Part shown: positions 5,817 to 55,030 of the stretch, piece after piece
Layout: each line of letters begins with the position of its first letter
Numbering within the stretch: position 1 is the first letter of the stretch
Assembly (NCBI RefSeq): GCF_044324875.1
Contig: NZ_CP172185.1
Length of the DNA: 64,000 bases
Reading direction: 5' to 3' (one strand)
DNA from: Escherichia coli
GTDB taxonomy: Bacteria > Pseudomonadota > Gammaproteobacteria > Enterobacterales > Enterobacteriaceae
Translations under genes and position numbers: made by a program
Notes under the pieces: generated by a model
Told to the model about the DNA's origin: nothing
What the model saw: only the letters and a program-made list of their open reading frames with translations
The model's database searches: none

Positions 5817-5872
5817 TGCTTATCCGGCTAACCACTCTTGCTTGTTCAGGCCCGGTAGCCGGAGCGACCGGG
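5805..5872. repeat. REP-like GC-rich palindromes in the fucK-fucI intergenic region (GCCGGATAACATTGCTTATCCGGC; CCCGGTAGCCGGAGCGACCGGG)
   Basis: Two imperfect palindromes with CCGGATAA/TTATCCGG cores typical of REP units. Confidence 0.45.
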
Positions 5873-5894
5873 CATCACATCAGGGAGTAATGTA

Positions 5895-39663: not shown

Positions 39664-39835
39664 GTCTATGTCCCTTTTAATTAATTCCTTAAAACATAAT
39701 ACGCCGCTTCATTTTATTCTTTATGATCTCATCCACTTTTTGCCTTAAACCTGCCTGTAACAGAATGTTAATAAGACATGATTGTTGTGGCAGGATCTGC
39801 AATAATTAACAATTATCCACTTCACAGAGAATGCT

Positions 39836-40507: not shown

Positions 40508-40699
40508 TTAAACATTTATAAGCGTTATAAATGGGTGGAACCTGTAAAGACTTCTACTCATTTATATTCTTTGTCGCCTCTGAAAAACCTCCATTTTGCC
40601 CATCCTGAACTAATCATTATCATTCTCTACAAATTTTATGGCGTTAATTTTTCGTTGGAGTGAAAATTATTGCGGTGAAATTTGGTAGATTTTAGTTTG

Positions 40700-40845
40700 A
40701 ATAGAGTTATTTCAAATATTTATCTTTTTAATCAATGGATTAAATGCTCTTTAACATAATGGATGTGTTGTTTGTGTGATACTGTAAAGTTGGTAGATTG
40801 TGACTGGCTTAAAAAATCATTAATTAATAATAGGTTATGTTTAGA
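40700..40845 (+). promoter_or_regulatory. AT-rich CRISPR leader (promoter and IHF region) immediately upstream of the first repeat
   Basis: Sequence ...TGGCTTAAAAAATCATTAATTAATAATAGGTTATGTTTAGA abuts repeat 1; matches my memory of the E. coli type I-E leader end. Confidence 0.6.
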
Positions 40846-41118
40846 GAGTTCCCCGCGCCAGCGGGGATAAACCGCTTCATCTGTCGGGCTAACTGGACAA
40901 AGAAACGAGTTCCCCGCGCCAGCGGGGATAAACCGTCGGTTTGACATCAAAGAAGCCATCAATCAGGGAGTTCCCCGCGCCAGCGGGGATAAACCGGTCT
41001 GGCCATAGGAACAAAGAAATTTGTCTTTGAGTTCCCCACGTCAGCGGGGATAAACCGGACACAGAGCGCCGCTATAGCGCCTATGCCAAGAGTTCCCCGC
41101 GCCAGCGGGGATAAACCA
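40846..41118 (+). CRISPR. Type I-E CRISPR array (CRISPR2.1 position): 5 repeats of 29 bp (GAGTTCCCCGCGCCAGCGGGGATAAACCG) and 4 spacers of 32 bp each
   Basis: Repeats at 40846, 40907, 40968, 41029 (variant CCCCACGTCAG) and 41090 (terminal, ...AAACCA); spacers at 40875-40906, 40936-40967, 40997-41028 and 41058-41089; regular 61-bp periodicity. Confidence 0.95.
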
Positions 41119-41586
41119 CCATATAACCCGTTATCTCTTTCTCAAGTTTTTATATTAGCAGTACTTGTAATAAGCAACATATCCACGTAACACCTCATGT
41201 TCAAAATAGTTCTCCATGCCAGAGAAGTTCACAATTATCGATACAAAAAATTAAATTTAATCAAAGTGTTATTTGTATGATTCTTAAATCGTTAAGAAAT
41301 TTTAATATATTATTTTTTTAATATTAATTAATGCCTGTTAATTTTTTCTTTAGAATAACAGTGTATTTTTTAAGCTTATTATTCATTGATTAAGTAATAA
41401 ATCTGGAAATTTGTCTTTGTTTTGAGGCTAATGAGTGATTTTACATAATCGCCTCTATACGCTGTTGATGAATAGTTCTTATGAATAAAGATATCCAGTT
41501 CATACTTTAAGTGAAAATTGATAAAGTGCGATTCGTATTGTCTTTTATTCTAAAGACATCGAGTGTAGTTAATATTCCTTGTAAAA

Positions 41587-41709
41587 ACAGGGATAAACCG
41601 AACTAGTTAAAGTTTTTATTATGTTCCCTGCATCAGCGGGGATAAACCGGACTTGTTATCATTTTTTAAGTTGTCGAACTTATGTTCCCCGCGTCAGCGG
41701 GGATAACCA
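41587..41709 (+). CRISPR. Degenerate mini-array (CRISPR2.2-2.3-like remnant): truncated repeat, then 2 variant repeats (ATGTTCCCTGCATCAGCGGGGATAAACCG; ATGTTCCCCGCGTCAGCGGGGATAACC) with one 32-bp spacer and one about 20-bp spacer
   Basis: Repeat-like units at 41587-41600 (partial), 41621-41649 and 41682-41709; spacer at 41650-41681 is 32 bp. Confidence 0.7.
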
Positions 41710-41755
41710 TTCAGGTATGTTCAGGCCGGGCAGTTTCCCGCCCGGTCTTCCTCAC

Positions 41756-43234
41756 TTACGCATTCGACCAGCTCTGGATCGAATCTTCATTCCCCAGCTC
41801 ACCATGCATCACTTCATACGATTTTTTCAGGATCACATCAGTGTGTTTGGTTAGGTCTTTGAAAATGCCTTTATTCATCGCGTTGTAGCGTTTGGCGTTG
41901 CTCTCAACAGGCATAAAGATATCTTTCACGCGAACCATTTTGTCGACAGCCGTTGCGTAATCCGGGTATAGCCCCAGACCTACCGCCGTATTAATCGCTG
42001 CCCCCAGGCTTGCACAACCATTAATGGCGTTACGGCGTGCCGGAAGGTTGAACACGTCGGCAAAAATCTGCATAAACAGATCGCTGTTCGAACCGCCGCC
42101 AGTAATGATCACATGCTTTGCAAAGTGATTCATTTCATTACACATATTGTCGTAATTGTTCTTCAGCGTCAGCGCCACGCTTTCCAGTATCGAACGATAT
42201 ATCCATGCGTAATCCATGCTGGAATCAAAGCCAATCATAATCCCGCGTTTGTACGGTTCCCACGGATTGGTCAGCCAGTCCAGCACCGTCATCAGACCAT
42301 TACAGCCTGGCGGCACACAAGAAGCTTTTTTGTTGAGTAAATCTTCCGGTGAAAGATCCTGCGCCCTGGCATCCTGAATTAACGACTCGCCTAGCATGTC
42401 GCGCAGCCAGCTCACCGTCCACATGCCTTTGCGAATACCGTAACCTTCATACAGCAAGGTTTGCGGAATAGAAGACATAATCGGCCAGTACGCTACCGGA
42501 TCTTTCGGCAGTACTTTGCCGTTCATCATCAACGCGATGTAAGTGCCAAGAGAAATTACCGCAGTTTCATCATCCAGTAACCCGGCTCCCAGTGCTTCTA
42601 CCGGTTTATCACTGGTGGTACAAACAACCGGCAGCCCAGCCGGGAAATGTGTCGCCAGCGCGGCTTGAGGAGTGATATGCCCAAGAACAGTGCCCGGCAT
42701 TTGCACATCAAACAGCATATGACGGGGGATATTAAACTTCTCCATGACTGCGGCATCTTCACTCCATGCCCAGGTCTTATAATCCACCGGCCACTGACCA
42801 AAATAGTTGGCGATATTGTCTTTAAACTCGCCGGTTAAGCGATGCGTCAGATAACCCGAAAAAGAGGTGACATATGCCACGTCAGGATTCGTATGTTCGT
42901 AAGGGCGTGTAACGCGTGCATCCTGCCAGCTAATCAACGGCGCAGCTGGCGTGCCATCGGCTTTCAATAACGCACGGCAGCAACGGATGGATCCCAGACC
43001 AATACCGACAATATCTTCTTTATTTCCGGCAAACTGACTCATCAAATCGTGACCGGCAAAGCATAATGATGCCCATAAATCGTCGTCAGGATGTTCTGCG
43101 GTATCGGCATCTGGCGTGTGCATCGGCTGCAATAAGCCTTTGCCTTCGCAAACCACATTACCTTCCAGATCGTACATCACCACTTTTGTGCTCTGACTTC
43201 CACCATCAATCCCTATGATGTATTTTTTCGACAT
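41756..43234 (-). CDS. ygcE: FGGY-family carbohydrate kinase
   Basis: 492 aa; FGGY N-terminus IGIDGGSQSTKVV. Confidence 0.9.
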   Translation of the reverse strand: MSKKYIIGIDGGSQSTKVVMYDLEGNVVCEGKGLLQPMHTPDADTAEHPDDDLWASLCFAGHDLMSQFAGNKEDIVGIGLGSIRCCRALLKADGTPAAPLISWQDARVTRPYEHTNPDVAYVTSFSGYLTHRLTGEFKDNIANYFGQWPVDYKTWAWSEDAAVMEKFNIPRHMLFDVQMPGTVLGHITPQAALATHFPAGLPVVCTTSDKPVEALGAGLLDDETAVISLGTYIALMMNGKVLPKDPVAYWPIMSSIPQTLLYEGYGIRKGMWTVSWLRDMLGESLIQDARAQDLSPEDLLNKKASCVPPGCNGLMTVLDWLTNPWEPYKRGIMIGFDSSMDYAWIYRSILESVALTLKNNYDNMCNEMNHFAKHVIITGGGSNSDLFMQIFADVFNLPARRNAINGCASLGAAINTAVGLGLYPDYATAVDKMVRVKDIFMPVESNAKRYNAMNKGIFKDLTKHTDVILKKSYEVMHGELGNEDSIQSWSNA

Positions 43235-43260
43235 GATTTTTCTCCTGTAATTTTCTGGAC

Positions 43261-44538
43261 TTACTTGCTGCTAGCCATAGCAGGGGCGCTATCAGCAGTA
43301 CGAATTTTTTGGAACAGCAAAAAGGTAAAGACGATCACCATGGCAAGCGCCGCCATGCCCATCAGCCACATATTGCGGTAGGCTTCTGCAGCGGGCAGGG
43401 TGTCTTGCCAGTAGCCGATAATCGGGTAAACGAAGACATCCGGCAGGAATCCAATCACCGAACAAATACCTACCGTGGTGCCCATAATGTAAGACGGTGT
43501 TCTCGCTTCGCCAGGGCAGGCCCAGTACAGCCCGCGTGAGGCGTAACAGGTGAATCCCAGCAGTAAAATCAGGCCAATCCCCATCGCGACCGATTGCGGG
43601 TTAGAGTTCGTGACGAGCAGGGCAGTTAACGCCAGCAAGCCGAGTACGGAAAGGATTTGGATCACGCGGGTAGGGGATTTCACTTTGCTGTAGGTGGTGA
43701 TAATGCCACCAAGTGGGCCGCACAGTGCGCGGAAGATTTTGTTGATCACAATCCCCATGTAGCTCGCCGCCACCAGCGACATGCCGTACATTTCGGTCAG
43801 ATAGTTGGTGGAGTAACTCAGAATGGCGTAGATGGTGAAGACACCAAAAATCACCATGCTGCAATACCAGGTGGTGCTGATGCGCAAAACAGCCAGGATG
43901 TCGCTAAGCTGGAATGACTGTTTTTCTTCGTTATTGGTATTGCACAGGTTGTTGTTATCGCTAACAAAAAACCAACACAAAATGCCCAGCAGAATGTAAA
44001 CCACACTATAGATAATAATGACCGTTTTCAGGCTGGCGCTGTCATCCGGTGCAAAGCGAGAAAAGACCCACATGGTAAACACCGCCAGCGACATTACACC
44101 GACGCCGCGCAGCCCTTCCATCCAGCCCATAATTTTCCCTTGCTCGCTATGATCGCCCAGCAACGAGGCGGCTTTAATCGACACCGACCACAGCATTAAA
44201 ATAGTGGTTATCGCAAAGGCGACCTGAATACAGAGCATTACCCACAGCGGTGGATATGTTGCCATTAACAGACCCAGTAATCCGGTAATGATCATCGCGG
44301 AAGTAATCATTTTGCGGTGTGAAAATTTATCGGCAATAACGCCGCTGGGGGCATAAAGAATAATAGCCGCAATACCAAAGGTACTCATTATTAAACCTAT
44401 CTCGGTATTGCTGAATCCCATAAATTTCGCCATGGGAATTTGATAAATATAACGTAAATAAGCCAGGTCGAAACTAACGCCGCCGCTAAAACTAATTATC
44501 GCGAGGGTTATCCAACGGCGATATGAGTTGTGTTGCAT
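43261..44538 (-). CDS. yqcE: MFS transporter
   Basis: 425 aa, 12 TM helices; upstream of ygcE in the same orientation. Confidence 0.9.
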   Translation of the reverse strand: MQHNSYRRWITLAIISFSGGVSFDLAYLRYIYQIPMAKFMGFSNTEIGLIMSTFGIAAIILYAPSGVIADKFSHRKMITSAMIITGLLGLLMATYPPLWVMLCIQVAFAITTILMLWSVSIKAASLLGDHSEQGKIMGWMEGLRGVGVMSLAVFTMWVFSRFAPDDSASLKTVIIIYSVVYILLGILCWFFVSDNNNLCNTNNEEKQSFQLSDILAVLRISTTWYCSMVIFGVFTIYAILSYSTNYLTEMYGMSLVAASYMGIVINKIFRALCGPLGGIITTYSKVKSPTRVIQILSVLGLLALTALLVTNSNPQSVAMGIGLILLLGFTCYASRGLYWACPGEARTPSYIMGTTVGICSVIGFLPDVFVYPIIGYWQDTLPAAEAYRNMWLMGMAALAMVIVFTFLLFQKIRTADSAPAMASSK

Positions 44539-44562
44539 ATCGTATTCCCATTTGTAATAGAC

Positions 44563-44610
44563 AAAAAAAAGAGAAAAGTAAGCCGCCCTTTCAGGTGGAT
44601 TACTTTTCTC
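44563..44610 (-). terminator. Leader intrinsic terminator about 25 nt upstream of the yqcE start codon (minus strand: GAGAAAAGUAA-18 nt loop-UUACUUUUCUC + U8)
   Basis: Perfect 11-bp stem followed by 8 U on the minus strand, inside the 5' leader of yqcE-ygcE. Confidence 0.6.
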
Positions 44611-44659
44611 AGGTCTCTAGTAATTGCAATAAGAAATAACATGGAAAGCAGTGGTGTTG

Positions 44660-44675
44660 TGTGAGAGTAATCACG
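44660..44675. promoter_or_regulatory. CRP-like site TGTGAGAGTAATCACG, positioned about -41.5 relative to the inferred minus-strand yqcE promoter
   Basis: TGTGA-N6-TCACG (9/10 half-site match). Confidence 0.45.
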
Positions 44676-44716
44676 CTTCTGCTTTTTAAAATTATTTGAC
44701 AATTCGAATATCACAC

Positions 44717-44732
44717 TGTGATTACGATCACA
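44717..44732. promoter_or_regulatory. CRP consensus site TGTGATTACGATCACA, about -41.5 relative to the inferred ygcW promoter (extended -10 TGATAAAAT at 44751-44759)
   Basis: Perfect TGTGA-N6-TCACA. Confidence 0.55.
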
Positions 44733-44786
44733 TTAGCGATTATGCCCTTATGATAAAAATTATCTCCAGTTACCAGAGATAATGAG

Positions 44787-44832
44787 AAAGGTAACTTCCC
44801 TCTCGCGGGGGAAGTTACCTTTCTTTTTTTTT
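44787..44832 (+). terminator. Strong leader intrinsic terminator 25 nt upstream of the ygcW start codon (AAAGGTAACTTCCC-loop-GGGAAGTTACCTTT + CTTTTTTTTT)
   Basis: Perfect 14-bp stem plus a 9-T run, between the predicted promoter and the ygcW SD/ATG (44847/44857). Confidence 0.75.
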
Positions 44833-44856
44833 GCCTTACGGAAATTGGAGCTAACT

Positions 44857-45642
44857 ATGTCAATCGAATCTCTCAATGCGTTCTCAATGGATTTTTTCTC
44901 CCTGAAAGGCAAAACCGCAATTGTTACCGGCGGGAATAGCGGTTTAGGCCAGGCATTTGCCATGGCGCTGGCCAAAGCAGGCGCAAATATCTTTATTCCA
45001 AGCTTCGTTAAAGATAACGGCGAAACAAAGGAAATGATTGAAAAACAGGGTGTTGAGGTGGACTTCATGCAGGTGGATATCACCGCAGAAGGCGCGCCGC
45101 AGAAGATAATCGCCGCCTGTTGCGAACGTTTCGGTACCGTCGATATTCTGATTAACAATGCCGGTATTTGTAAGCTGAATAAGGTGCTGGACTTCGGTCG
45201 TGCCGACTGGGACCCGATGATTGATGTGAACCTGACCGCCGCATTCGAGTTAAGCTATGAAGCTGCAAAAATTATGATCCCGCAGAAAAGCGGTAAAATC
45301 ATTAATATCTGTTCATTATTCTCTTACTTAGGTGGACAATGGTCACCTGCATATTCTGCCACTAAACATGCTCTTGCCGGATTCACCAAAGCTTATTGTG
45401 ATGAACTAGGTCAATATAATATTCAGGTAAATGGTATTGCCCCTGGCTATTATGCAACAGATATTACGCTGGCGACACGCAGTAATCCAGAAACTAATCA
45501 GCGCGTTCTTGATCATATTCCGGCAAACCGTTGGGGCGATACTCAGGATTTAATGGGCGCAGCCGTATTCCTCGCAAGTCCGGCTTCAAATTATGTTAAC
45601 GGGCATTTATTAGTGGTCGATGGCGGTTATTTAGTGCGCTAA
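44857..45642 (+). CDS. ygcW: Short-chain dehydrogenase/reductase (KduD/2-deoxy-D-gluconate 3-dehydrogenase-like)
   Basis: 261 aa from ATG 44857 (SD ggag); Rossmann motif TGGNSGLG; ORF track extends to 44782 across the terminator, which is implausible. Confidence 0.85.
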   Translation: MSIESLNAFSMDFFSLKGKTAIVTGGNSGLGQAFAMALAKAGANIFIPSFVKDNGETKEMIEKQGVEVDFMQVDITAEGAPQKIIAACCERFGTVDILINNAGICKLNKVLDFGRADWDPMIDVNLTAAFELSYEAAKIMIPQKSGKIINICSLFSYLGGQWSPAYSATKHALAGFTKAYCDELGQYNIQVNGIAPGYYATDITLATRSNPETNQRVLDHIPANRWGDTQDLMGAAVFLASPASNYVNGHLLVVDGGYLVR

Positions 45643-45711
45643 TCCATAACGGTGGTTTCTGTTTTCTCTTATTAATGATTATTCCATTTTTATTATCAGG
45701 AAGGAATTACT

Positions 45712-47166
45712 ATGTCTTTATCTCGCGCAGCGATTGTCGACCAGCTAAAGAAAATTGTTGGTGCAGATCGCGTAATTACCGATGAAACAGTATTAAAGAA
45801 GAACAGTATTGACCGTTTTCGCAAATTTCCGGATATTCATGGCATTTATACTTTGCCGATTCCGGCAGCGGTCGTAAAACTCGGTTCCACAGAACAAGTA
45901 TCCCGTGTGCTGAATTTTATGAATGCGCACAAAATTAACGGTGTGCCGCGTACCGGTGCTTCCGCTACCGAAGGTGGGCTGGAAACCGTTGTGGAAAACT
46001 CGGTGGTGCTCGACGGCTCTGCCATGAATCAAATCATTAATATTGATATTGAGAATATGCAGGCCACGGCGCAATGCGGAGTTCCGCTGGAAGTGCTGGA
46101 AAACGCGTTGCGTGAAAAAGGTTACACCACGGGGCATTCTCCGCAGTCAAAGCCGCTGGCGCAGATGGGCGGCCTGGTAGCAACCCGCAGTATCGGGCAG
46201 TTCTCCACACTCTACGGCGCAATCGAAGATATGGTCGTTGGTCTGGAAGCAGTATTGGCTGATGGCACCGTAACACGCATTAAAAACGTACCACGCCGCG
46301 CGGCAGGCCCGGACATTCGTCACATCATCATCGGCAACGAAGGTGCATTGTGCTATATCACTGAAGTAACAGTGAAAATCTTTAAGTTCACCCCGGAAAA
46401 CAACCTCTTCTACGGCTATATCCTGGAAGACATGAAAACCGGCTTCAACATCCTACGTGAAATCATGGTGGAAGGGTATCGTCCGTCGATCGCTCGTTTG
46501 TATGACGCTGAAGATGGCACCCAACACTTCACCCATTTTGCCGACGGAAAATGCGTGCTGATCTTTATGGCTGAAGGTAACCCTCGCATTGCGAAGGCGA
46601 CGGGCGAAGGGATTGCTGAAATCGTGGCACGTTACCCGCAATGCCAGCGAGTGGACAGCAAGCTGATCGAAACCTGGTTTAACAACCTGAACTGGGGACC
46701 GGATAAAGTAGCTGCCGAACGTGTGCAGATCCTCAAAACCGGCAACATGGGCTTTACCACCGAAGTGTCCGGCTGCTGGAGCTGCATTCACGAAATCTAC
46801 GAAAGCGTTATTAACCGTATTCGTACCGAGTTCCCGCACGCCGACGACATCACCATGCTGGGCGGTCACTCCTCTCATAGCTATCAGAACGGCACCAACA
46901 TGTACTTCGTCTACGACTACAACGTCGTTGACTGTAAGCCGGAAGAGGAAATCGACAAGTACCACAATCCGCTCAACAAAATCATCTGCGAAGAAACCAT
47001 TCGCCTCGGTGGTTCGATGGTGCACCACCACGGTATCGGTAAACATCGCGTTCACTGGAGCAAACTGGAACACGGCAGCGCGTGGGCGTTGCTGGAAGGG
47101 CTGAAAAAGCAGTTCGATCCTAACGGCATTATGAATACGGGTACTATCTATCCGATTGAAAAATAA
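45712..47166 (+). CDS. ygcU: FAD-linked oxidase (GlcD / alkyl-DHAP synthase-like)
   Basis: 484 aa; FAD-binding PCMH domain plus C-terminal oxidase domain. Confidence 0.9.
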   Translation: MSLSRAAIVDQLKKIVGADRVITDETVLKKNSIDRFRKFPDIHGIYTLPIPAAVVKLGSTEQVSRVLNFMNAHKINGVPRTGASATEGGLETVVENSVVLDGSAMNQIINIDIENMQATAQCGVPLEVLENALREKGYTTGHSPQSKPLAQMGGLVATRSIGQFSTLYGAIEDMVVGLEAVLADGTVTRIKNVPRRAAGPDIRHIIIGNEGALCYITEVTVKIFKFTPENNLFYGYILEDMKTGFNILREIMVEGYRPSIARLYDAEDGTQHFTHFADGKCVLIFMAEGNPRIAKATGEGIAEIVARYPQCQRVDSKLIETWFNNLNWGPDKVAAERVQILKTGNMGFTTEVSGCWSCIHEIYESVINRIRTEFPHADDITMLGGHSSHSYQNGTNMYFVYDYNVVDCKPEEEIDKYHNPLNKIICEETIRLGGSMVHHHGIGKHRVHWSKLEHGSAWALLEGLKKQFDPNGIMNTGTIYPIEK

Positions 47167-47259
47167 TGTGTCAGGCAGCGTTCCGCGATGACGGAGCGTT
47201 GCCTTTTCGGCTTCTCAGGCGAGAAGCCGTTCTTATTACCGGACAATGAAGGGGTAAAG

Positions 47260-48597
47260 ATGAACACTTCACCGGTGCGAATGGATGATTTACCGCTTAA
47301 CCGTTTTCACTGTCGAATTGCTGCGCTCACTTTCGGCGCACACCTGACCGACGGTTATGTTCTAGGCGTCATTGGTTACGCCATTATTCAGCTTACGCCC
47401 GCCATGCAACTGACGCCGTTTATGGCGGGTATGATCGGCGGCTCGGCGCTCCTTGGTTTGTTTCTTGGCAGCCTGGTTCTTGGGTGGATCTCCGACCATA
47501 TTGGTCGGCAAAAAATCTTCACCTTCAGCTTTTTGCTGATTACGCTCGCTTCGTTCTTGCAATTTTTTGCCACCACGCCAGAGCATCTTATTGGATTGCG
47601 CATTTTGATCGGCATTGGTCTGGGAGGCGATTACTCAGTCGGTCACACCTTGCTGGCTGAATTTTCCCCGCGCCGCCATCGCGGTATTTTGCTGGGCGCA
47701 TTCAGTGTGGTGTGGACCGTAGGCTATGTGCTGGCAAGTATTGCCGGACATCACTTTATTACCGAAAGCCCGGAGGCCTGGCGCTGGCTGCTGGCATCAG
47801 CGGCGTTACCAGCCTTGCTGATTACGCTGCTACGTTGGGGCACGCCGGAATCGCCACGCTGGCTACTGCGCCAGGGGCGTTTTGCTGAAGCTCACGCTAT
47901 CGTGCATCGCTACTTTGGTCCCCATGTTTTACTGGGCGATGAAGTGGCAACGGCGACCCATAAACACATCAAAACATTGTTCTCTTCGCGCTACTGGCGG
48001 CGCACAGCGTTTAACAGCGTCTTCTTTGTCTGCCTCGTAATCCCATGGTTTGTGATTTATACCTGGCTGCCAACTATCGCCCAAACTATTGGTCTGGAAG
48101 ATGCGCTGACAGCCAGCCTGATGCTTAATGCGTTGTTAATTGTGGGCGCGCTGCTGGGATTAGTTCTGACGCACCTGCTGGCACATCGCAAATTTTTGCT
48201 GGGAAGTTTTTTGCTGCTGGCGGCAACGCTGGTCGTGATGGCCTGTTTGCCTTCCGGCAGTTCATTAACGCTGCTGCTTTTTGTTCTCTTCAGCACCACC
48301 ATTTCGGCAGTCAGTAATCTGGTGGGCATTTTGCCTGCGGAAAGTTTTCCTACTGACATTCGCTCGCTGGGCGTCGGTTTTGCCACCGCCATGAGTCGGT
48401 TGGGCGCGGCAGTAAGTACGGGCCTGCTGCCGTGGGTGCTGGCGCAGTGGGGAATGCAAGTCACCTTATTGCTCCTGGCGGCAGTGTTGTTGGTTGGTTT
48501 TGTCGTGACCTGGCTATGGGCACCAGAAACCAAAGCACTCCCGCTGGTGGCGGCGGGAAATGTAGGAGGTGCGAATGAACATTCTGTTAGCGTTTAA
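47260..48597 (+). CDS. ygcS: MFS sugar/metabolite transporter
   Basis: 445 aa from ATG 47260 (SD aagggg); ORF track start 47188 is likely over-extended. Confidence 0.85.
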   Translation: MNTSPVRMDDLPLNRFHCRIAALTFGAHLTDGYVLGVIGYAIIQLTPAMQLTPFMAGMIGGSALLGLFLGSLVLGWISDHIGRQKIFTFSFLLITLASFLQFFATTPEHLIGLRILIGIGLGGDYSVGHTLLAEFSPRRHRGILLGAFSVVWTVGYVLASIAGHHFITESPEAWRWLLASAALPALLITLLRWGTPESPRWLLRQGRFAEAHAIVHRYFGPHVLLGDEVATATHKHIKTLFSSRYWRRTAFNSVFFVCLVIPWFVIYTWLPTIAQTIGLEDALTASLMLNALLIVGALLGLVLTHLLAHRKFLLGSFLLLAATLVVMACLPSGSSLTLLLFVLFSTTISAVSNLVGILPAESFPTDIRSLGVGFATAMSRLGAAVSTGLLPWVLAQWGMQVTLLLLAAVLLVGFVVTWLWAPETKALPLVAAGNVGGANEHSVSV

Positions 48598-49354
48598 AGC
48601 CGAACCGGATGTCGGAATGCTGGCGGAAAAAGAGTGGCAGGCGGCGGCTCAGGGTAATAGCGGACCGGATGTTTCGCTTCTGCGAAGTTTACTCGGTGCT
48701 GATGAACAGGCTGCCGCCGCGCTGCTGTTGGCGCAGAGAAAAAACGGTACGTCGATGTCTTTAACCGCGTTGAGCATGGGGGATGAACGGGCGTTGCACT
48801 GGCTGCGCTATCTCATGGCTCTTGGGTTTGAGGAAGCTGTATTGCTGGAGACGGTGGCAGATCTGCGCTTTGCGCCGGAATTTGTCGCTCGCCATATTGC
48901 CGAATGGCAGCGTCAGAATCCGCTGGATCTGATAATTACCGGCTGCCAAAGCAGCGAAGGGCAGAATGGGCAAACGCCATTTTTGCTGGCGGAAATGCTG
49001 GGCTGGCCCTGCTTCACCCAGGTGGAGCGTTTTACTCTCGACGCGCCGTTTATCACCCTTGAACAGCGTACTGAAAACGGGCTGCGCTGTTGCCGGGTTC
49101 GCTTGCCTGCGGTGATTGCCGTGCGTCAGTGCGGTGAAGTGGCCTTGCCAGTACCGGGAATGCGTCAGCGAATGGCGGCGGGGAAAGCAGCAATTATCCG
49201 TAAAACTGTTGCTGCCGAATTGCCAGCGATGCTGTGTCTGCAACTGGCAAGAGCAGAGCAACAACGCGGAGCGACGCTGATTGATGGGCAAACGGTAGCA
49301 GAAAAAGCGCAAAAGCTATGGCAGGACTATTTACGCCAAAGGATGCAGCCATGA
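48575..49354 (+). CDS. ygcR: Electron transfer flavoprotein beta-subunit-like (FixA-like)
   Basis: 259 aa from ATG 48575 with SD aggagg; overlaps the ygcS end. Confidence 0.85.
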   Translation: MNILLAFKAEPDVGMLAEKEWQAAAQGNSGPDVSLLRSLLGADEQAAAALLLAQRKNGTSMSLTALSMGDERALHWLRYLMALGFEEAVLLETVADLRFAPEFVARHIAEWQRQNPLDLIITGCQSSEGQNGQTPFLLAEMLGWPCFTQVERFTLDAPFITLEQRTENGLRCCRVRLPAVIAVRQCGEVALPVPGMRQRMAAGKAAIIRKTVAAELPAMLCLQLARAEQQRGATLIDGQTVAEKAQKLWQDYLRQRMQP

Positions 49355-50211
49355 ATATCGCAATTGTGACAATAAATCAGGAGAATGCCGCAATAGCGAG
49401 CTGGCAGGCGGCGCAGGATTTCAGCGGTTGTACCCTGGCGCACTGGAAGATTGAACCTCAGCCCGCTGTGGCGGAACAGGTGCTGGATGCGCTGGTGGAA
49501 CAGTGGCAGCGAACGCCTGCGGACGTTGTTCTCTTTCCGCCGGGAACGTTTGGCGATGAACTGTCGACCCGGCTGGCCTGGCGTTTACATGGTGCAAGCA
49601 TCTGCCAGGTGACTTCGTTAGATATTCCAACCGTAAGCGTGCGCAAATCCCACTGGGGAAATGCGCTAACGGCGACGCTGCAAACAGAAAAACGCCCGCT
49701 ATGCCTTTCCCTGGCGCGTCAGGCGGGAGCAGCGAAAAACGCCACGTTGCCCTCTGGTATGCAGCAACTGAACATTGTCCCAGGTGCGCTTCCCGACTGG
49801 CTGGTTAGCATAGAGAATCTGAAAAATGTTAGCCGCGACCCATTAGCTGAAGCCAGACGGGTGCTGGTGGTGGGGCAGGGCGGAGAGGCAGATAACCAGG
49901 AAATCGCTATGCTGGCAGAAAAGCTGGGAGCCGAAGTGGGCTACAGTCGGGCACGAGTGATGAACGGTGGCGTTGATGCCGAAAAAGTGATTGGTATTTC
50001 TGGACATCTGCTGGCACCTGAGGTGTGTATTGTTGTTGGCGCTTCCGGCGCAGCAGCGTTAATGGCGGGCGTACGCAATAGCAAGTTTGTGGTGGCGATT
50101 AATCATGACGCCAGCGCGGCGGTATTTTCACAGGCAGATGTTGGCGTGGTTGATGACTGGAAAGCGGTGCTGGAGGCTCTGGTGACAAACATTCACGCAG
50201 ATTGCCAATAA
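49351..50211 (+). CDS. ygcQ: Electron transfer flavoprotein alpha-subunit-like (FixB-like)
   Basis: 286 aa; ATGA overlap with the ygcR stop. Confidence 0.85.
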   Translation: MNIAIVTINQENAAIASWQAAQDFSGCTLAHWKIEPQPAVAEQVLDALVEQWQRTPADVVLFPPGTFGDELSTRLAWRLHGASICQVTSLDIPTVSVRKSHWGNALTATLQTEKRPLCLSLARQAGAAKNATLPSGMQQLNIVPGALPDWLVSIENLKNVSRDPLAEARRVLVVGQGGEADNQEIAMLAEKLGAEVGYSRARVMNGGVDAEKVIGISGHLLAPEVCIVVGASGAAALMAGVRNSKFVVAINHDASAAVFSQADVGVVDDWKAVLEALVTNIHADCQ

Positions 50212-50212
50212 C

Positions 50213-50330
50213 GTGCTGCCGGATGATCCTGCCTACGGTTCTGGGCTGGGGACTTGTAAGCCTGATAAGACGCGTCAAGCGTCGTATCAGGCGCTGAATG
50301 TCGGATGTGGCGTGCAGCCTACAAATCACA
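50213..50330. repeat. Cluster of REP elements (GCCGGATGATCCTGCCTAC...; GCCTGATAAGACGCGTCAAGCGTCGTATCAGGCG; GTCGGATGTGGCGTG)
   Basis: Multiple REP palindromes with the GCCTGATAAGACGCG...CGCATCAGGC signature between convergent ygcQ and ygcP. Confidence 0.55.
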
Positions 50331-50357
50331 CAAATTCAACTCGTTACGAGTATCCCG

Positions 50358-50933
50358 TCAAAGCAATTTTTTCGCTAACGTCCAGACCCCGGTATTCGTG
50401 GTGGAAAGCGCCACAACACCCGCGTTAATCGCATTACGCGCATCTTCTTCATCGCACACCAGCCCGCCGGCAATCAGCGGTTGGCGGATTTTCTCCGTCA
50501 CCCAGCCTAGCACTTTAGGCATACAGCCTGGCAGGATCTCAATACAATCCGGATTCGATTGCGCAACTTGCTTATCAATGTTGTGAAACGAAATCGAATC
50601 AACAATAAACAGGCGATGAATACAGAAAAAACCTTCCGCTCTTGCCGCTTTTAGCATCGATGCTTTCGTGCTGATAATGCCGTCCGCCTCGGTCACCAGT
50701 TTCAGAAACTGAATCACCACTTCTTTGTTCGATGCGCCTTCCAGCAAATCAACATGAATAAAGGCATATTTTCCGGCGTTTTTAATCTTTTTAACGATAT
50801 TACTGATGGTGCAGATATTGCCGTACAACACGGAAATAAACTGGCATTCAGAGTCGATTGCCAGTTGCAGGCTGGCATTATCTTTAACGGCAGCAATCAC
50901 CGGATTCTGGCGGAGCAGGTGTAAGAGGGGCAT
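50358..50933 (-). CDS. ygcP: GlpP-family (glycerol-3-phosphate-responsive antiterminator-like, PF04309) putative RNA-binding antiterminator
   Basis: 191 aa; shares B. subtilis GlpP hallmark blocks (HVDLLEG, GIISTK, HRLFIVDS, PDCIEILPG, GGLV...A...GVVALSTTN). Confidence 0.85.
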   Translation of the reverse strand: MPLLHLLRQNPVIAAVKDNASLQLAIDSECQFISVLYGNICTISNIVKKIKNAGKYAFIHVDLLEGASNKEVVIQFLKLVTEADGIISTKASMLKAARAEGFFCIHRLFIVDSISFHNIDKQVAQSNPDCIEILPGCMPKVLGWVTEKIRQPLIAGGLVCDEEDARNAINAGVVALSTTNTGVWTLAKKLL

Positions 50934-50949
50934 AAATTATCCTTATTAT

Positions 50950-51210
50950 TTATCCAAAGCGGTAGGTGATGCCGAATCCGGAAGGCGGATAGTGCCACTG
51001 TTGTAGCGTTTTTTCATCGCACAGCAAACGGCAGGTGCCGCACTCCAGACAATTACGATAATCAACGTGCAAATCACCCTCCGGTGTGAGCGAAAAAAGA
51101 CCAGCCGGACAAGCGTTAATCAACTGTTGTGCCGTCTGGCGCTCAACGGAGTCTGCCGGAACAATATGTGGCGCATCAGCAGCGCGCCAGAGATTACGGG
51201 CTACAGACAT
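50950..51210 (-). CDS. ygcO: FixX-like ferredoxin (4Fe-4S)
   Basis: 86 aa from ATG 51210 (SD aggag); Cys motif CLECGTCRLLCD; 10-nt overlap with the ygcN stop. Confidence 0.8.
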   Translation of the reverse strand: MSVARNLWRAADAPHIVPADSVERQTAQQLINACPAGLFSLTPEGDLHVDYRNCLECGTCRLLCDEKTLQQWHYPPSGFGITYRFG

Positions 51211-52472
51211 CGAATACTCCTGACAACATCGCCCGCCAGATGCCACAGGCCATGACGACGTAAATGACGCCAGAATAACTGGCGCAGCGGTGGAACAGGT
51301 TTATCACCCTGATCCCATAAATCACGGGAAATATCCTGCATTAACGCAGGCCACGCCCGATACCAGCCAGGGCGTTGCAAAAGCGCCGGAACATGCTGAT
51401 AACGCTGTAAAACATCCCACAGCAGGCTGCGCTCTACGTTGTGATGATAAAGCGGAAACAGATTTTGCGGCTCGCGGTGCTGGCAGGCGCTTATTAGCGT
51501 TTGTGCCGCCGCCTGCGCGCCAGTTAGCGCCATATCCATGCCGCGCACGGAAATTCCGGTATTGACGCAACTGCGCAACGCATCGCCCACCAGCAGTCAG
51601 CCGTTACCGGCGTATTGCATCGGCATACTGTGTAAGCCACCTTCTGGCACCAGATGCGCACCATACTCCAGTGATTCCGTGTTTTTGATAAGCGGGCGCA
51701 CTGCCGGATGCGTTTTAAAGCGAGCCAGCAGCTCGCTTGCCGGAACACGACTTTGCGTAAGGGAAGAGAGCGGGCAAACAATCCCTAACGAGAGCGTTTG
51801 TTGATTAGTATAAAGAAATGCGCCGCCGGGTAAGTCATCACAGATCCCGCCGCTGAACAGCAACGCTGCGCCTTCGTTATTCTCCAGATGAAAACGTTCT
51901 TCAATAGCGGATGTTTCCAGCGACAGCACTTCTTTGATCCCCAACGCCATCGCTTCGCCAGCAGGACGAGTCACTAACCCGTGACGTTCAGCCAGGACGC
52001 TGTTGGCACCTTCTGCCAGCACCACATAACGGGCGCGGAGAATATCGTCACCACAAATGACACCACACACCCTGCCGTTTTCTTCATACAGCGCATCCAC
52101 CGTCGCACCGGGGATGCATTCGACACCTTCTTTTTCGGCTTCGGCAACCAGCCACGGATCGAACCGTGCACGTAATACACTCCAGGATTCACCGCCGGGC
52201 TGTAAGCTGGAAAACGTCGTTGCGCCATCCGGCGTTAGCAGAGAAAGGCTTTCGTGAGTGATGCGTCGTTCAAGAGGCGCGGTCAGATGAAATTGCGGGA
52301 GGAGTTCCGCGAGCGCATGGGTGTATAAACGCCCGCCGGAAAGATTTTTGCTGCCGGGGATTTCAGCGCGTTCCAGTAACAGAACGGACAAACCTGCCCG
52401 CGCGCAGCGTAAAGCACAAGCGGTACCTGCTATACCCGCACCAATAATAATAATGTCGCAGTTGTCTTCCAT
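51201..52472 (-). pseudogene. ygcN: FixC-like FAD-dependent oxidoreductase (ETF-quinone oxidoreductase-like) interrupted by an in-frame TGA at 51597-51599
   Basis: ORFs 51597..52502 and 51201..51590 are in the same frame separated only by TGA; joined length from MEDNCD (52472) is 423 codons, equal to intact K-12 YgcN; N-terminal FAD motif GAGIAGTACA. Confidence 0.75.
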
Positions 52473-52549
52473 GTCATGCCCCAGATATCCAGAACACAAC
52501 ACCCTAACATGGCGTTACTTAAGGGAAATTGACCGCCGACACACTCTTA

Positions 52550-52915
52550 TCATTCGCCGCGATAGATACAGCCTGCAGTACAGGTTTCTTTTACCATCAC
52601 CGCACTTAACAGCGGCACAACGGGTTTAACCTGATCCCAAATCCATTTTGCTAAAACTTCGCTGGTTGGGTTTTCCAGACCTGGAATATCATTGAGATAA
52701 TGGTGATCGAGGCGCTCATAAGTTGGCTTAAACGCCGCTTTCAGTTCAGCGAAATCGATAATCCAGCCCGTATGCGGATCGACCTCCCCGGTAATTTCCA
52801 GTCGCACCATAAAGGAATGCCCGTGCAGGCGACCACATTTATGCCCTTCCGGGACGTGTGGTAAGCGGTGAGCGGCTTCGAAGGTGAAATCTTTAAATAA
52901 CGTGGTGGACATCAT
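52550..52915 (-). CDS. queD: 6-carboxy-5,6,7,8-tetrahydropterin synthase QueD
   Basis: 121 aa from [19 protein letters not shown]; PTPS motifs (CGRLHGHSF). Confidence 0.9.
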
Positions 52916-53230
52916 AATTTCTCTACAGGACGATAAAACCGCCGTAGAGTACCGGAAAGGCTGTTTTTTCGCATTATCTAAAACGACTTTGTTGCGCAAA
53001 ATCGCTGATTTATCTTATTGATGGGCAATATTCATTTGTTTTTCATTGGGTTGGTTAATCTATTTTGTTGTTAAAGACTATTGCTAAAACAGGTTAGTCG
53101 ATTTGGTTATTAGTTATCGCTATCCCGTCTTTAATCCACACCGTTCACCCCGTTAACCTTACCTTCTCTTCTGTTTTATGGGCGCTGACAGGGCGCAGAA
53201 ACAGCTTTGCTTACTGGAACATAACGACGC

Positions 53231-55030
53231 ATGACGACACAGGTCCCACCTTCCGCGTTGCTTCCGTTGAACCCGGAGCAACTGGCACGCCTTCAGGCGG
53301 CCACGACCGATTTAACTCCCACCCAGCTTGCCTGGGTTTCTGGCTATTTCTGGGGCGTGCTCAACCAGCAGCCAGCTGCGCTTGCAGCGACGCCAGCGCC
53401 CGCCGCAGAAATGCCGGATATAACTATTATCTCCGCTTCGCAAACCGGCAATGCGCGCCGGGTTGCTGAAGCATTACGCGATGATTTATTGGCGGCAAAA
53501 CTGAACGTTAAGCTGGTGAACGCGGGCGACTATAAATTCAAACAAATCGCCAGCGAAAAACTGCTTATCGTGGTGACGTCAACGCAAGGGGAAGGGGAAC
53601 CGCCGGAAGAAGCCGTCGCGCTGCATAAGTTCCTGTTCTCCAAAAAAGCGCCAAAGCTGGAAAACACTGCATTTGCCGTGTTTAGCCTCGGCGATAGCTC
53701 TTATGAATTTTTCTGCCAGTCCGGGAAAGATTTTGACAGCAAGCTGGCGGAACTGGGCGGTGAACGCCTGCTCGACCGTGTCGATGCCGACGTTGAATAC
53801 CAGGCTGCTGCCATCGAGTGGCGCGCCCGCGTGGTTGATATTCTGAAGTCCCGTGCGCCTGTCGCGGCACCTTCGCAATCCGTCGCTACTGGCGCGGTAA
53901 ATGAAATCCACACCAGCCCGTACAGCAAAGACGCGCCGCTGGTGGCGAGCCTCTCTGTTAACCAGAAAATTACCGGGCGTAACTCTGAAAAAGACGTTCG
54001 CCATATCGAAATTGACTTAGGTGACTCGGGCCTGCGTTACCAGCCGGGTGACGCGCTGGGCGTCTGGTATCAGAACGATCCGGCACTGGTGAAAGAACTT
54101 GTCGAACTGCTGTGGCTGAAAGGCGATGAAACTGTCACCGTTGACGGCAAAACGCTGACCCTGAGCGAAGCGCTCCAGTGGCACTTTGAACTCACCGTCA
54201 ACACCGCGAATATTGTTGAGAACTACGCCACGCTTACCCGCAGCGAAACGCTGCTGCCGCTGGTGGGCGATAAAGCGAAGTTACAGCATTACGCCGCGAC
54301 CACGCCGATTGTTGACATGGTGCGTTTCTCTCCGGCGCAACTGGATGCCGAAGCGCTGATTAACCTGTTGCGCCCGCTGACCCCGCGCCTGTATTCCATC
54401 GCCTCCTCGCAGGCGGAAGTCGAGAACGAAGTGCACGTTACCGTTGGTGTGGTGCGTTACGACGTGGAAGGCCGCGCCCGTGCCGGTGGTGCCTCCAGCT
54501 TCCTCGCGGATCGTGTGGAAGAAGAGGGTGAAGTCCGCGTCTTTATCGAACATAACGACAACTTCCGCCTGCCCGCTAACCCGGAAACCCCGGTGATCAT
54601 GATTGGCCCTGGCACCGGCATCGCGCCGTTCCGTGCCTTTATGCAGCAGCGTGCTGCCGACGAAGCGCCGGGTAAAAACTGGCTATTCTTTGGCAACCCA
54701 CACTTTACGGAAGATTTCCTCTACCAGGTGGAGTGGCAGCGCTACGTGAAAGAAGGCGTATTGAGCCGCATCGATCTTGCCTGGTCGCGCGACCAAAAAG
54801 AAAAAGTTTATGTACAAGACAAACTGCGCGAACAGGGCGCGGAGCTGTGGCGCTGGATCAATGACGGTGCCCACATTTATGTCTGCGGCGACGCTAATCG
54901 CATGGCGAAAGACGTTGAGCAGGCACTTCTGGAAGTGATTGCCGAATTTGGTGGCATGGACACCGAAGCGGCGGATGAATTTTTAAGTGAGCTGCGCGTA
55001 GAGCGCCGTTATCAGCGAGATGTCTACTAA
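53231..55030 (+). CDS. cysJ: Sulfite reductase [NADPH] flavoprotein alpha component CysJ
   Basis: 599 aa; flavodoxin plus FAD/NADPH domains. Confidence 0.95.

Follow-up and report, generated by a model that had tools for sequence, protein, structure and literature searches.

The ygc gene cluster of Escherichia coli as a candidate GlpP-style antitermination regulon preceded by two conserved leader RNAs

What do the ten ygc genes of Escherichia coli do, and how are they switched on? They belong to the larger E. coli gene blocks without a known function, yet they are core and strongly selected, and they are common to Klebsiella, Citrobacter, Serratia, Vibrio, clostridia, bacilli and Streptomyces. 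We analysed them in a 64,000-nucleotide stretch of the E. coli contig NZ_CP172185.1 (the whole of which is termed the window herein), where they occupy positions 41756-52502 as three transcription units. Our preferred answer, to which we give a probability of roughly 55%, is that the cluster is a catabolic regulon controlled by GlpP-style antitermination, on the plan of the Bacillus subtilis glp regulon but devoted to a different small hydroxylated compound. The genes themselves were already known; new are a pair of leader RNAs with a box conserved across phyla, their link to the protein YgcP, a split of the cluster into core and accessory genes, and an association with quaternary amines.

The strongest terminator-like site of the region (44784-44833) is in the leader in front of ygcW, just upstream of the ygcW start codon (ATG 44857); it combines a 19-bp stem (44784-44825), a 4-nt loop and a T9 run, and the leader has a 5' box (CAGTTACCAGAGATAATGAGAAAGGTAAC). 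On the opposite strand, the leader of yqcE carries the conserved 5' box AATTACTAGAGA..GAGAAAAGTAAT and a terminator at 44561-44610 (minus strand) ahead of yqcE. The predicted minimum free energies were -34.2 kcal/mol (z -6.35) for the ygcW leader and -22.3 kcal/mol (z -4.11) for the yqcE leader. A covariance model of the leaders, R1, gave exactly two strong matches in the window, at the ygcW leader (81.7 bits, E 1e-14) and the yqcE leader (76.6 bits, E 1e-13). RefSeq annotates no feature under either of them, and a cmscan of 39500-53500 against Rfam, at E up to 1, returned no match within 44539-44856.

In nearly all enterobacterial loci the element upstream of ygcW reads CAGTTACY-AGAGA-N-GAGAAARGTAAC, followed by a variable stem top, TTRCYTTTCTC and a T-run, and a second copy on the yqcE strand gives almost every enterobacterial locus two leaders. 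Across an alignment of 120 distinct copies the segments TTAC, GAG, GAGAAA and G were invariant, while the top of the terminator stem varied freely; the terminator was 88.8% paired, with double changes at 10 of its 19 pairs. The RTTACY box can also pair with RGTAAY at the start of the terminator 5' arm, forming an alternative 6-bp helix that was 94% paired, versus 14-53% when the partner was slid. Two of its pairs covaried: pair 4-34 (GC in 75 copies, AU in 44, other in 1) and pair 9-29 (UA in 86, CG in 30, other in 4). Taken alone, the upstream hairpin was weak (-6.7 and -1.4 kcal/mol, no better than shuffles), and with so strong a terminator behind it termination would therefore be the default, a factor (a protein) being needed to prevent it. 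Of 5426 complete E. coli genomes, 5000 carry the yqcE leader with an identity of 99% or more. Blastn with this leader found no extra regulon members elsewhere in E. coli, with one place per genome in nearly all and two at the highest (a split match), a search too insensitive for diverged copies.

Both leaders lie at the same distance from a CRP site. For the ygcW leader, whose first base is 44766, the consensus site TGTGAttacgaTCACA (TGTGATTACGATCACA) at 44717-44732 has its centre 41.5 bp upstream; for the yqcE leader, which starts at 44626, the CRP-like site TGTGAgagtaaTCACg (TGTGAGAGTAATCACG) at 44660-44675 likewise has its centre 41.5 bp upstream. This would be class II CRP geometry at both leaders, the transcription starts being inferred from the spacing. 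The yqcE/ygcW spacer ranked near the top of CRP-site predictions by PhyloScan (PMC1794230), and yqcE-ygcE is on a list of Crp-activated genes (PMC8085971).

The candidate factor is encoded in the cluster. Residues 12-184 of YgcP cover positions 1-173 of the 173 positions of PF04309 (G3P_antiterm) with 210.6 bits against a cut-off of 27, and YgcP matches the Listeria GlpP structure 3KTS with E 1.2e-27. In Bacillus subtilis, GlpP bound to glycerol-3-phosphate activates glpD, glpFK and glpTQ, and in every one of these targets a promoter is followed by a GlpP site and an inherent terminator in the 5' untranslated region (UTR) (PMC9604022). The ygc cluster has the full-length PF04309 regulator, an intrinsic terminator in the 5' UTR after a putative promoter at both operons, and a conserved element able to compete with the terminator, this last limited by few independent events and a weak helix. 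YgcP is thus probably the RNA-binding antiterminator of both leaders. By analogy with GlpP, we propose that it binds leader RNA when loaded with a phosphorylated effector, probably one other than glycerol-3-phosphate. As judged from these sequences, the ygc system would work like the GlpP system and YgcP is a family member by its domain; the leader RNA is not of the same RNA family.

A sequence-only reading of the window had proposed an uncharacterised catabolic module of unknown substrate with its own GlpP-like antiterminator. Profile searches support that proposal, and its antiterminator part is strengthened by the finding that both operons begin with a strong leader terminator behind a conserved box. 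The genes, as open reading frame (ORF) calls compared with their RefSeq counterparts, and the elements between them are as follows.

44538 to 41756, leftward: transcription unit yqcE-ygcE
44857 to 50211, rightward: transcription unit ygcW-ygcU-ygcS-ygcR-ygcQ
52472 to 50358, leftward: transcription unit ygcN-ygcO-ygcP
41756-43234, minus strand: ygcE, FGGY-family kinase, second gene of the yqcE-ygcE operon, intact
43261-44538, minus strand: yqcE, major facilitator superfamily (MFS) transporter, first gene of the leftward operon
44561-44627, minus strand: yqcE leader RNA, with 5' box, intrinsic terminator and U8 run
44660-44675: CRP-like site, yqcE side
44717-44732: CRP consensus site, ygcW side
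44766-44835, plus strand: ygcW leader RNA, with 5' box, 19-bp terminator stem and T9 run
44857-45642, plus strand: ygcW, short-chain dehydrogenase/reductase (SDR) resembling KduD and gluconate 5-dehydrogenase, start ATG 44857
45712-47166, plus strand: ygcU, FAD enzyme of the VAO/PCMH superfamily, resembling alkyl-dihydroxyacetone-phosphate (alkyl-DHAP) synthase
47188/47260-48597, plus strand: ygcS, MFS transporter of sugar-porter/aromatic-acid type, alternative start ATG 47260
48575-49354, plus strand: ygcR, electron-transfer flavoprotein (ETF) beta or FixA-like subunit
49351-50211, plus strand: ygcQ, ETF alpha or FixB-like subunit
50212-50357: convergent ygcQ/ygcP spacer with a palindrome of repetitive extragenic palindromic (REP)/BIME type, GCCTGATAAGACGCG...CGTCGTATCAGGC
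50358-50933, minus strand: ygcP, GlpP-family (PF04309) protein, last gene of ygcN-ygcO-ygcP
50950-51210, minus strand: ygcO, FixX-like ferredoxin
51201-52472, minus strand: ygcN, flavoprotein resembling FixC and ETF-quinone oxidoreductase (ETF-QO), a pseudogene here

All ten genes lie where the sequence-only reading had grouped them, as both the ORFs and RefSeq attest. Nine are intact, and the stop codon in ygcN had been overlooked; the end coordinate given for the group, 52502, belongs to a GTG-extended ORF fragment, the annotated start being ATG 52472. The earlier family assignments held in Pfam and NCBIfam searches, that of the ferredoxin-like YgcO through matches under the cut-offs, the other Pfam matches being FGGY_N/C (YgcE), MFS_1 twice (with Sugar_tr as a further match of YgcS), adh_short (YgcW), FAD_binding_4 with FAD-oxidase_C (YgcU), ETF, ETF_alpha, G3P_antiterm, and DAO with ETFQO_UQ-bd. 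None of the ten proteins reached the NCBIfam cut-off of a functionally defined family, nor did the BCCT and MttB neighbours met in other phyla (see below).

The kinase YgcE scored below the cut-offs of all named FGGY kinases (XylB, LsrK, GlpK, GntK, AraB, FucK and RhaB), with XylB as the best match (142 bits vs a cut-off of 380), followed by LsrK (138 vs 528) and GlpK (102 vs 590). It is about equidistant from xylulokinase and autoinducer-2 kinase, with glycerol kinase farther off, and its nearest solved relatives are LsrK and GlpK. YqcE showed a weak match to the D-galactonate/ACS-type MFS subfamily. YgcS matches aromatic-acid and sugar-porter MFS families, and its overexpression raised the yield of nicotinamide mononucleotide (NMN) from nicotinamide (PMC8601175), an indirect clue. 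YgcW came close to the KduD models (NF005390, 350.1 bits vs a cut-off of 369; TIGR01832, 275.5 vs 338.9) and is, by these scores, a close paralogue of KduD and not KduD itself; it is 68-76% identical in Firmicutes and other phyla.

The flavoenzyme YgcU had been called a FAD-linked oxidase; it is a FAD enzyme, and it is nearer alkyl-DHAP synthase than generic FAD oxidases. Among solved structures the best relatives were AGPS/ADPS (E 2.7e-40), followed by glycolate oxidase (4e-26), LctD (7qh2; 1e-21) and D2HGDH (3.5e-16), and YgcU fell below the cut-offs for GlcD and D-2-hydroxyacid dehydrogenase (TIGR00387, 143 bits vs 568; NF008408, 66 vs 897). Its C-terminus aligns with AGPS through GGSxxHHHGxGK and SHxY, with GGSMVHHHGIGK opposite GGSLSHHHGVGK and HSSHSYQNGTNMYF opposite HISHTYTNGVCLYF. 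YgcU therefore contains the FAD_binding_4 and FAD-oxidase_C core with the HHH loop and the Tyr segment, residues of which are catalytic in AGPS. It lacks the N-terminal domain and the length of roughly 580-660 aa of the AGPS proteins, being 484 aa long and aligning from ADPS residue 138 and AGPS residue 215.

The remaining four proteins form an electron-transfer branch. YgcR (PF01012) and YgcQ (PF00766 and PF01012) are ETF subunits, both below the FixA and FixB equivalog cut-offs. YgcO matched the FixX model NF011993 with E 1e-21 and 77 bits vs a cut-off of 166, its Pfam Fer4 matches lying under the gathering score. An intact YgcN orthologue has DAO and ETFQO_UQ-bd domains and is of FixC type (NF007450, 379 bits vs 466). 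The window holds no intact FixC-like flavoprotein, ygcN stopping at codon 292, where an in-frame TGA (51597-51599, minus strand; W292*) replaces the TGG of the reference locus L001, from E. coli Ecol_316. The exact 291-aa product is present verbatim in public E. coli assemblies (SRB26725.1; 118 contigs), and W292* is therefore a real allele rather than an error. The ETF-QO step would thus be inactivated in this strain, and because ygcN is the first gene of ygcN-ygcO-ygcP, the stop may also reduce ygcO-ygcP expression by polarity. The same 90% cluster also contains YgcN proteins of E. coli and E. albertii that are cut to other lengths (268-373 aa), and truncated YgcO forms of 61-71 aa also occur in E. 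coli and E. albertii; these repeated truncations suggest that the ETF-QO branch has been lost repeatedly in Escherichia. A selenocysteine reading of the TGA was rejected, the codon being TGG in L001 and ygcN being annotated full-length in the best-matching complete genomes.

Among the 5426 complete RefSeq E. coli genomes the best identity over 41000-53200 (12 kb) was 98.2%, and 98.8% over ygcN-ygcO. Divergence from the best match depended on the gene, from 0.4% in ygcW to 8.8% in ygcO, a pattern suggestive of mosaic recombination or of a lineage in which no genome has yet been closed. A Shigella origin, suspected because no closer genome was found, is not supported, the exact protein alleles being labelled E. 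coli.

The leader is not confined to enterobacteria. In Pseudomonadota, Bacillota and Actinomycetota alike it accompanies YgcP together with the SDR, the FGGY kinase and the FAD enzyme; ten non-enterobacterial clusters with ygcP and a leader were examined. The leaders of Vibrio hannami, Photobacterium, Thalassobacillus, Fodinisporobacter, Clostridium sediminicola, Enterococcus gilvus, metagenomic Clostridia and Streptomyces clavuligerus all lie outside the set from which R1 was built, and they stand in front of genes for an SDR, FAD enzyme, kinase or transporter, with a ygcP homologue alongside. The arrangements, including those in metagenome-assembled genomes (MAGs), were as follows.

L083, Vibrio hannami: two divergent leaders
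L085, Thalassobacillus: divergent ygcP; SDR, kinase, FAD enzyme and BCCT genes
L073, Firmicutes MAG: one leader before ygcU-etfBA and one before a BCCT gene
L077, Syntrophomonadaceae MAG: ygcP, leader, SDR, kinase, ygcU, etfB, etfA
L206, Clostridium sediminicola: two leaders
L207, Photobacterium gaetbulicola: two leaders
L208, Fodinisporobacter: leader before SDR, kinase and OpuA ABC transporter genes
L209, Enterococcus gilvus megaplasmid: leader before an MFS gene; ygcP, SDR and osmoprotectant ABC transporter genes; FAD enzyme gene and etfBA
L210, Streptomyces clavuligerus megaplasmid: ygcP, leader (53.9 bits, 46% GC), SDR, FAD enzyme, FGGY kinase

The Streptomyces leader carries a compensated change inside the otherwise invariant GAGAAA/UUUCUC helix. 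Approximately 17 of 120 metagenome loci matched a short leader pattern and not the covariance model, and were discarded as chance matches.

These clusters also bear on the substrate. A BCCT or OpuA/OpuC-type transporter was found in nine of the ten non-enterobacterial ygcP-linked clusters; the Streptomyces locus had no BCCT or OpuA gene within 9 kb, only an MFS gene. The leader directly precedes a BCCT gene in L073 and an OpuA-type operon in L200. Non-pyrrolysine MttB proteins demethylate quaternary amines, and a gene of the MttB family is the last of the ygcW-E-U-etfBA operon in L126. In L172 such a gene lies directly behind the leader, followed by genes for a PanB-like protein and an OpuA transporter, and L077 has the same set beside its cluster. 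The MttB-family proteins of these three anaerobe loci scored 289-404 bits against a trimethylamine cut-off of 525 bits, and no corrinoid-protein gene was identified in the stretches read of the MttB-bearing loci. The core enzymes of E. coli share 65-76% identity with those of the Firmicutes, Vibrio and Bacillus clusters that have BCCT or OpuA genes, which argues for a shared substrate class across phyla. Judged by this gene content, the substrate is probably a hydroxylated quaternary-ammonium (betaine-like) compound, or a close relative or similar zwitterion. The hint of a 'carnitine-type' pathway in the sequence-only reading gains support from the BCCT, OpuA and MttB genes of these other phyla and finds none of them in the enterobacterial clusters.

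The ygcU gene directly precedes etfB-etfA in eight non-enterobacterial loci (L073, L077, L083, L126, L200, L206, L207 and L209), which argues for electron transfer from YgcU to ETF. Three of the clusters, from distant organisms, contain another FAD-oxidase gene accompanied by separate genes for EtfB and for an EtfA fused to a ferredoxin, in the layout of the electron-bifurcating lactate dehydrogenase LctDBC (L073, 13233-16789; L206, 422-3909; L207, 14803-18207); this second, LctD-like enzyme may oxidise a 2-hydroxyacid product of the pathway. In L077, and there only, two PlsC-type acyltransferase genes (5587-6912) lie directly upstream of ygcP on the same strand.

How old is the cluster, and is it under selection? 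A YgcU scan with one genome per species yielded 80 loci, from which a tblastn table of all ten proteins was made. The whole cluster lies between queE and queD-cysJ in Escherichia, Klebsiella, Raoultella, Citrobacter, Enterobacter, Lelliottia, Scandinavium, Buttiauxella, Cedecea, Yokenella, Mixta and others, a position common to at least 10 Enterobacteriaceae genera; Serratia, Rahnella, Erwinia, Pantoea and Budvicia have it at different sites. Of the 5426 complete E. coli genomes, 5061 (93%) contain 80% or more of the region, and approximately 7% lack most of the cluster. The GC content of the genes (0.46-0.56) brackets the window mean (0.505), and the cluster contains no mobility genes. By its ordinary composition, absence of mobility genes and a position shared with relatives, the cluster is not a genomic island; the label 'island' of the sequence-only reading, taken to mean recent acquisition, is not supported by these features or by the purifying selection described next.

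Ratios of nonsynonymous to synonymous divergence (dN/dS; own Nei-Gojobori script) were 0.00-0.03 for ygcW, ygcU and ygcP (0.01-0.03, 0.00-0.03 and 0.01-0.03, respectively), and 0.02-0.08 for ygcE (0.02-0.05), yqcE and ygcS, compared with 0.01-0.08 for the neighbours queE, queD and cysJ. The ETF genes ygcR, ygcQ and ygcO reached 0.09-0.27 (ygcR 0.09-0.27, ygcQ 0.13-0.19), and ygcN 0.04-0.15. The core genes are under very strong purifying selection, like their housekeeping neighbours, and the ETF genes are optional and evolve several-fold faster than the core. Identity followed the same pattern: YgcP is 96-97% identical to E. coli in Klebsiella and Citrobacter, while in Klebsiella YgcR is 70% and YgcQ 59% identical. 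Always present in the enterobacterial table were the SDR, the FAD enzyme, the kinase, YqcE and YgcP, with yqcE adjoining the kinase gene in all Enterobacterales loci, while ygcS was absent or relocated in several genera. The clusters of Serratia proteamaculans/quinivorans, Erwinia, Pantoea, Rouxiella, Izhakiella and Ewingella lack all four ETF/ETF-QO genes, and those of Thalassobacillus, Fodinisporobacter and Streptomyces also have no ETF genes. The ygc genes form an old functional unit, maintained by selection and equipped with an accessory branch for electron transfer, and not a recent island.

The kinase beside yqcE came in two types, one about 81-92% identical to E. coli YgcE and one only 43-50% identical (Serratia, Rahnella, Pantoea, Erwinia and one Buttiauxella). 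The Firmicutes kinases, at 54-57%, are closer to the E. coli type. This pattern suggests that the kinase was replaced in place by a paralogue.

We propose the following model. Two divergent class II CRP promoters would fire into leaders of about 70 nt that are terminated by default. YgcP, in complex with a phosphorylated intermediate that the kinase YgcE supplies, would bind the invariant 5' box RTTACY-AGAGA-N-GAGAAA-RGTAAY of the nascent leader and stabilise the weak hairpin, which would sequester the first bases of the terminator 5' arm and let RNA polymerase read through. After uptake through YqcE/YgcS, the KduD-like YgcW would oxidise a secondary alcohol, the penultimate hydroxyl of a terminal diol, and YgcE would phosphorylate the terminal CH2OH to give a 1-substituted dihydroxyacetone phosphate, the type of molecule bound by AGPS. 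YgcU would convert this keto-phosphate intermediate, and its electrons would pass to the ETF YgcRQ and on to quinone via the FixCX-like YgcN/YgcO, where these genes are present. This phosphorylated compound would serve YgcP as its natural effector, in the role that glycerol-3-phosphate plays for GlpP.

A more specific version of this model, which we regard as speculative and rather unlikely, makes the pathway a route for a glycerol- or diol-bearing quaternary amine, in which YgcU would cleave a C-O or C-N bond at C1 through flavin chemistry of the AGPS type, with DHAP and the amine as products. A new class of leader RNA, common to several phyla and read by a distinct YgcP subfamily of GlpP, would control the whole route. 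Possible substrates would be a deacylated betaine-lipid head group, a glycerophosphocholine-like compound or a dihydroxypropyl-trimethylammonium compound.

Several points weigh against the antitermination regulon as proposed. None of its evidence is experimental: RNA binding by YgcP, the YgcP ligand, the transcription start sites and termination at the leaders in vivo are all inferred. Few independent events in related sequences lie behind the covariation of the antiterminator helix, so that shuffle statistics overstate its support. An nhmmer profile of the 120 leaders detected no significant similarity to the B. subtilis glpD 5' UTR (the result was no better than for 2000 shuffles), and the likeness claimed for the two leaders is architectural only. 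The pathway scheme is chemically coherent and unproven, with the order of its enzymatic steps a guess. An ETF partner is hard to reconcile with the fact that AGPS itself is no net oxidase, and because the ETF genes are missing in many genera, ETF would be non-essential to the core chemistry. Finally, the enterobacterial transporters resemble acid-sugar and aromatic-acid MFS families, YgcW is nearest KduD, and not one of about 70 enterobacterial loci holds a BCCT, OpuA or MttB gene.

The last of these points are also the substance of the alternative that survives best. It retains the architecture and makes the substrate in Enterobacterales an ordinary, non-nitrogenous polyol or sugar acid (2-keto-3-deoxygluconate-, gluconate- or pentulose-like), the betaine-type transporters elsewhere reflecting a different substrate or convergent recruitment. 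The 350 bits of YgcW on the KduD model, just under the cut-off, fit this account, as do a kinase nearest xylulokinase and LsrK, the galactonate-type YqcE, the aromatic-acid/sugar-porter YgcS and the enterobacterial loci free of BCCT, OpuA and MttB. However, enzymes acting on different substrates are not usually as similar as the core enzymes are to those of the BCCT/OpuA clusters (65-76% identity), an MFS gene beside the kinase occurs along with a BCCT gene in both Vibrio and Photobacterium, and no equivalog cut-off was reached. We hold this alternative to be unlikely, while conceding it a substantial share of belief.

The leaders could instead work without a protein, as a riboswitch or a plain attenuator, with YgcP a TIM-barrel enzyme of the pathway rather than its regulator. 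PF04309 proteins (1VKF, 3KTS) have a phosphate-binding TIM-barrel fold, which for YgcP itself is a matter of sequence match, and YgcP is as conserved as the enzymes (dN/dS 0.01-0.03) and shares an operon with ygcN-ygcO in E. coli. Yet the conserved region before the terminator is only about 30 nt long, with one weak hairpin, too small for known ligand-binding aptamers, and in L077, L126, L207 and L210 ygcP is the first gene, directly upstream of the leader, as is typical of a regulator. The only studied member of the family, GlpP, is moreover an RNA-binding antiterminator acting on the same layout (PMC9604022). A protein-independent leader is accordingly improbable.

That the E. coli cluster is a cryptic, decaying remnant without present function, of which the ygcN stop would be one symptom, is more improbable still. 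It would account for W292* and the further truncations of YgcN and YgcO seen in E. coli and E. albertii, for the roughly 7% of complete genomes without most of the cluster, and for a literature in which no phenotype or inducer is reported. But dN/dS is 0.00-0.08 for ygcW, ygcU, ygcP, ygcE, yqcE and ygcS and below 0.3 even for the ETF genes, nine of the ten genes are intact, synteny and leaders are kept across Enterobacteriaceae, and the decay is confined to the accessory ETF-QO branch. Scarcely credible, lastly, is a biosynthetic role in which the AGPS-like enzyme, an SDR resembling acyl/alkyl-DHAP reductase and the kinase make an ether-linked glycerolipid-like product: the AGPS motifs of YgcU and the two PlsC-type genes before ygcP in L077 speak for it, and the predicted CRP-dependent promoters, the dedicated importers, the inducible antitermination design, the ETF coupling, the missing AGPS N-terminal domain and the restriction of the acyltransferases to one locus speak against it.

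The flanks of the cluster are as the sequence-only reading had described them, with clustered regularly interspaced short palindromic repeats (CRISPR) on one side, queD-cysJ on the other and a REP-type palindrome in the ygcQ/ygcP spacer, where the REP-derived naRNA4 of Rfam matched weakly (50259-50341, 29.5 bits, under the gathering score). The CRISPR, of type I-E, consists of five repeats at 40846-41116 (minus strand) between queE and ygcE, with a 61-bp period, four of them exact and one with 2 mismatches; no cas genes were present in the stretch examined around the array. A lone degenerate repeat lies at 41682-41708 (minus strand), 48 bp off the ygcE stop codon. Cluster and array together are wedged between the queuosine genes queE (39836-40507) and queD (52550-52912), which suggests an old insertion that split a que gene pair in an ancestor of Enterobacteriaceae. 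The reference locus L001 has the same stretch with identical gene names between queE and queD-cysJ.

Three further observations concern individual genes or records. Between ygcU and the K-12-type ygcS start (ATG 47260), in 47167-47259, lies a GC-rich hairpin, CGGCTTCTCAGGCGAGAAGCCG, at 47208-47229; the long ygcS of RefSeq (ATG 47188), used in L001 too, would be translated through it. No Salmonella locus was among the 80 YgcU loci returned by the scan. Records labelled as a Planctomycetota MAG, Chryseobacterium sp. 18061, Pseudomonas lundensis I31 and 'Patescibacteria group bacterium' (L005, L038, L064 and P0107) held ygc loci or YgcP homologues, those in L005, L038 and L064 being of enterobacterial type (80-100% identity), and these are most likely contaminated or mis-binned assemblies.

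Literature searches on ygc gene function, on MttB with quaternary amines, kinases and ETF, on clusters with AGPS and FGGY proteins, and on antiterminator product names found no functional study, only the CRP predictions, the Crp listing and the effect of YgcS on NMN; an Acetobacterium woodii match proved to be an ordinary glp cluster and was set aside. To our knowledge, GlpP-type antitermination has been studied only in Firmicutes so far. If the GlpP-style regulon is real, it adds a protein-dependent antitermination system to E. coli and a cis-regulatory RNA family that is not in Rfam. A fusion of the leader to a reporter would allow a compound library to be screened for the inducer, and hence for the substrate. 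Should the quaternary-amine link hold, it would bear on the turnover of choline-, carnitine- and betaine-type compounds in gut and sea and give an AGPS-like flavoenzyme its first catabolic role.

How does the cluster compare with systems already known? The loci L126, L172 and L077 resemble the non-pyrrolysine MttB-type quaternary-amine demethylation systems of anaerobes (MtgB, MtpB and MtcB) in having an MttB-family protein, here together with an OpuA-type transporter; all Proteobacterial ygc clusters are free of MttB, and the link to E. coli is by association only. In the cai/fix system the substrate is a quaternary amine imported by a BCCT transporter. As in fixABCX/caiTABCDE and ydiQRST of E. 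coli, a catabolic cluster here contains a paralogous set of four genes, for ETF beta and alpha, a FixC-like ETF-QO and a FixX-like ferredoxin; the ygc proteins differ in scoring below the FixA, FixB, FixC and FixX cut-offs, in having ETF genes that many genera dispense with, and in a partner that is an AGPS-like FAD enzyme rather than an acyl-CoA dehydrogenase, with no CoA-transferase or ligase genes.

The lactate dehydrogenase/ETF complex of LctBCD type and the ETF-dependent D-2-hydroxyacid dehydrogenases share with ygc a FAD_binding_4/FAD-oxidase_C enzyme encoded beside etfB-etfA, whereas YgcU is far closer to AGPS than to LctD or D2HGDH and has HHH at the position where 2-hydroxyacid dehydrogenases have a metal-binding Glu-His. 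With AGPS/ADPS, YgcU matches over the FAD domain and the C-terminal cap, retaining GGSxxHHHGxGK and SHxY(x)NG..YF. It differs from AGPS in lacking an N-terminal domain of about 140-215 residues and in its bacterial, catabolic context, in a cluster without lipid genes whose ETF partner implies net redox chemistry.

The closest parallel to the GlpP-style regulon proposed here is the glp system of B. subtilis itself. The two differ in that YgcP is only distantly related to the solved GlpPs (E 1e-27 to Listeria GlpP), the ygc flavoenzyme is of VAO/AGPS type and not GlpD type, the ygc-type clusters add an SDR, an ETF chain and MFS, BCCT or OpuA transporters, and the Gram-negative host uses CRP in place of CcpA. 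Their likeness lies in the plan. Both combine a PF04309 regulator, an FGGY kinase and a flavin enzyme, with catabolite control on top, and in B. subtilis the FGGY kinase makes the phosphorylated effector and the flavin dehydrogenase feeds the respiratory chain. In the published B. subtilis glpD 5' UTR (PMC9604022, Table S4), a GGTC box is complementary to GACC at the start of the long terminator arm, around a GAGA-rich loop, and the ygc leaders share this layout of an upstream box opposed to the start of the terminator arm across a GAGA-rich loop.

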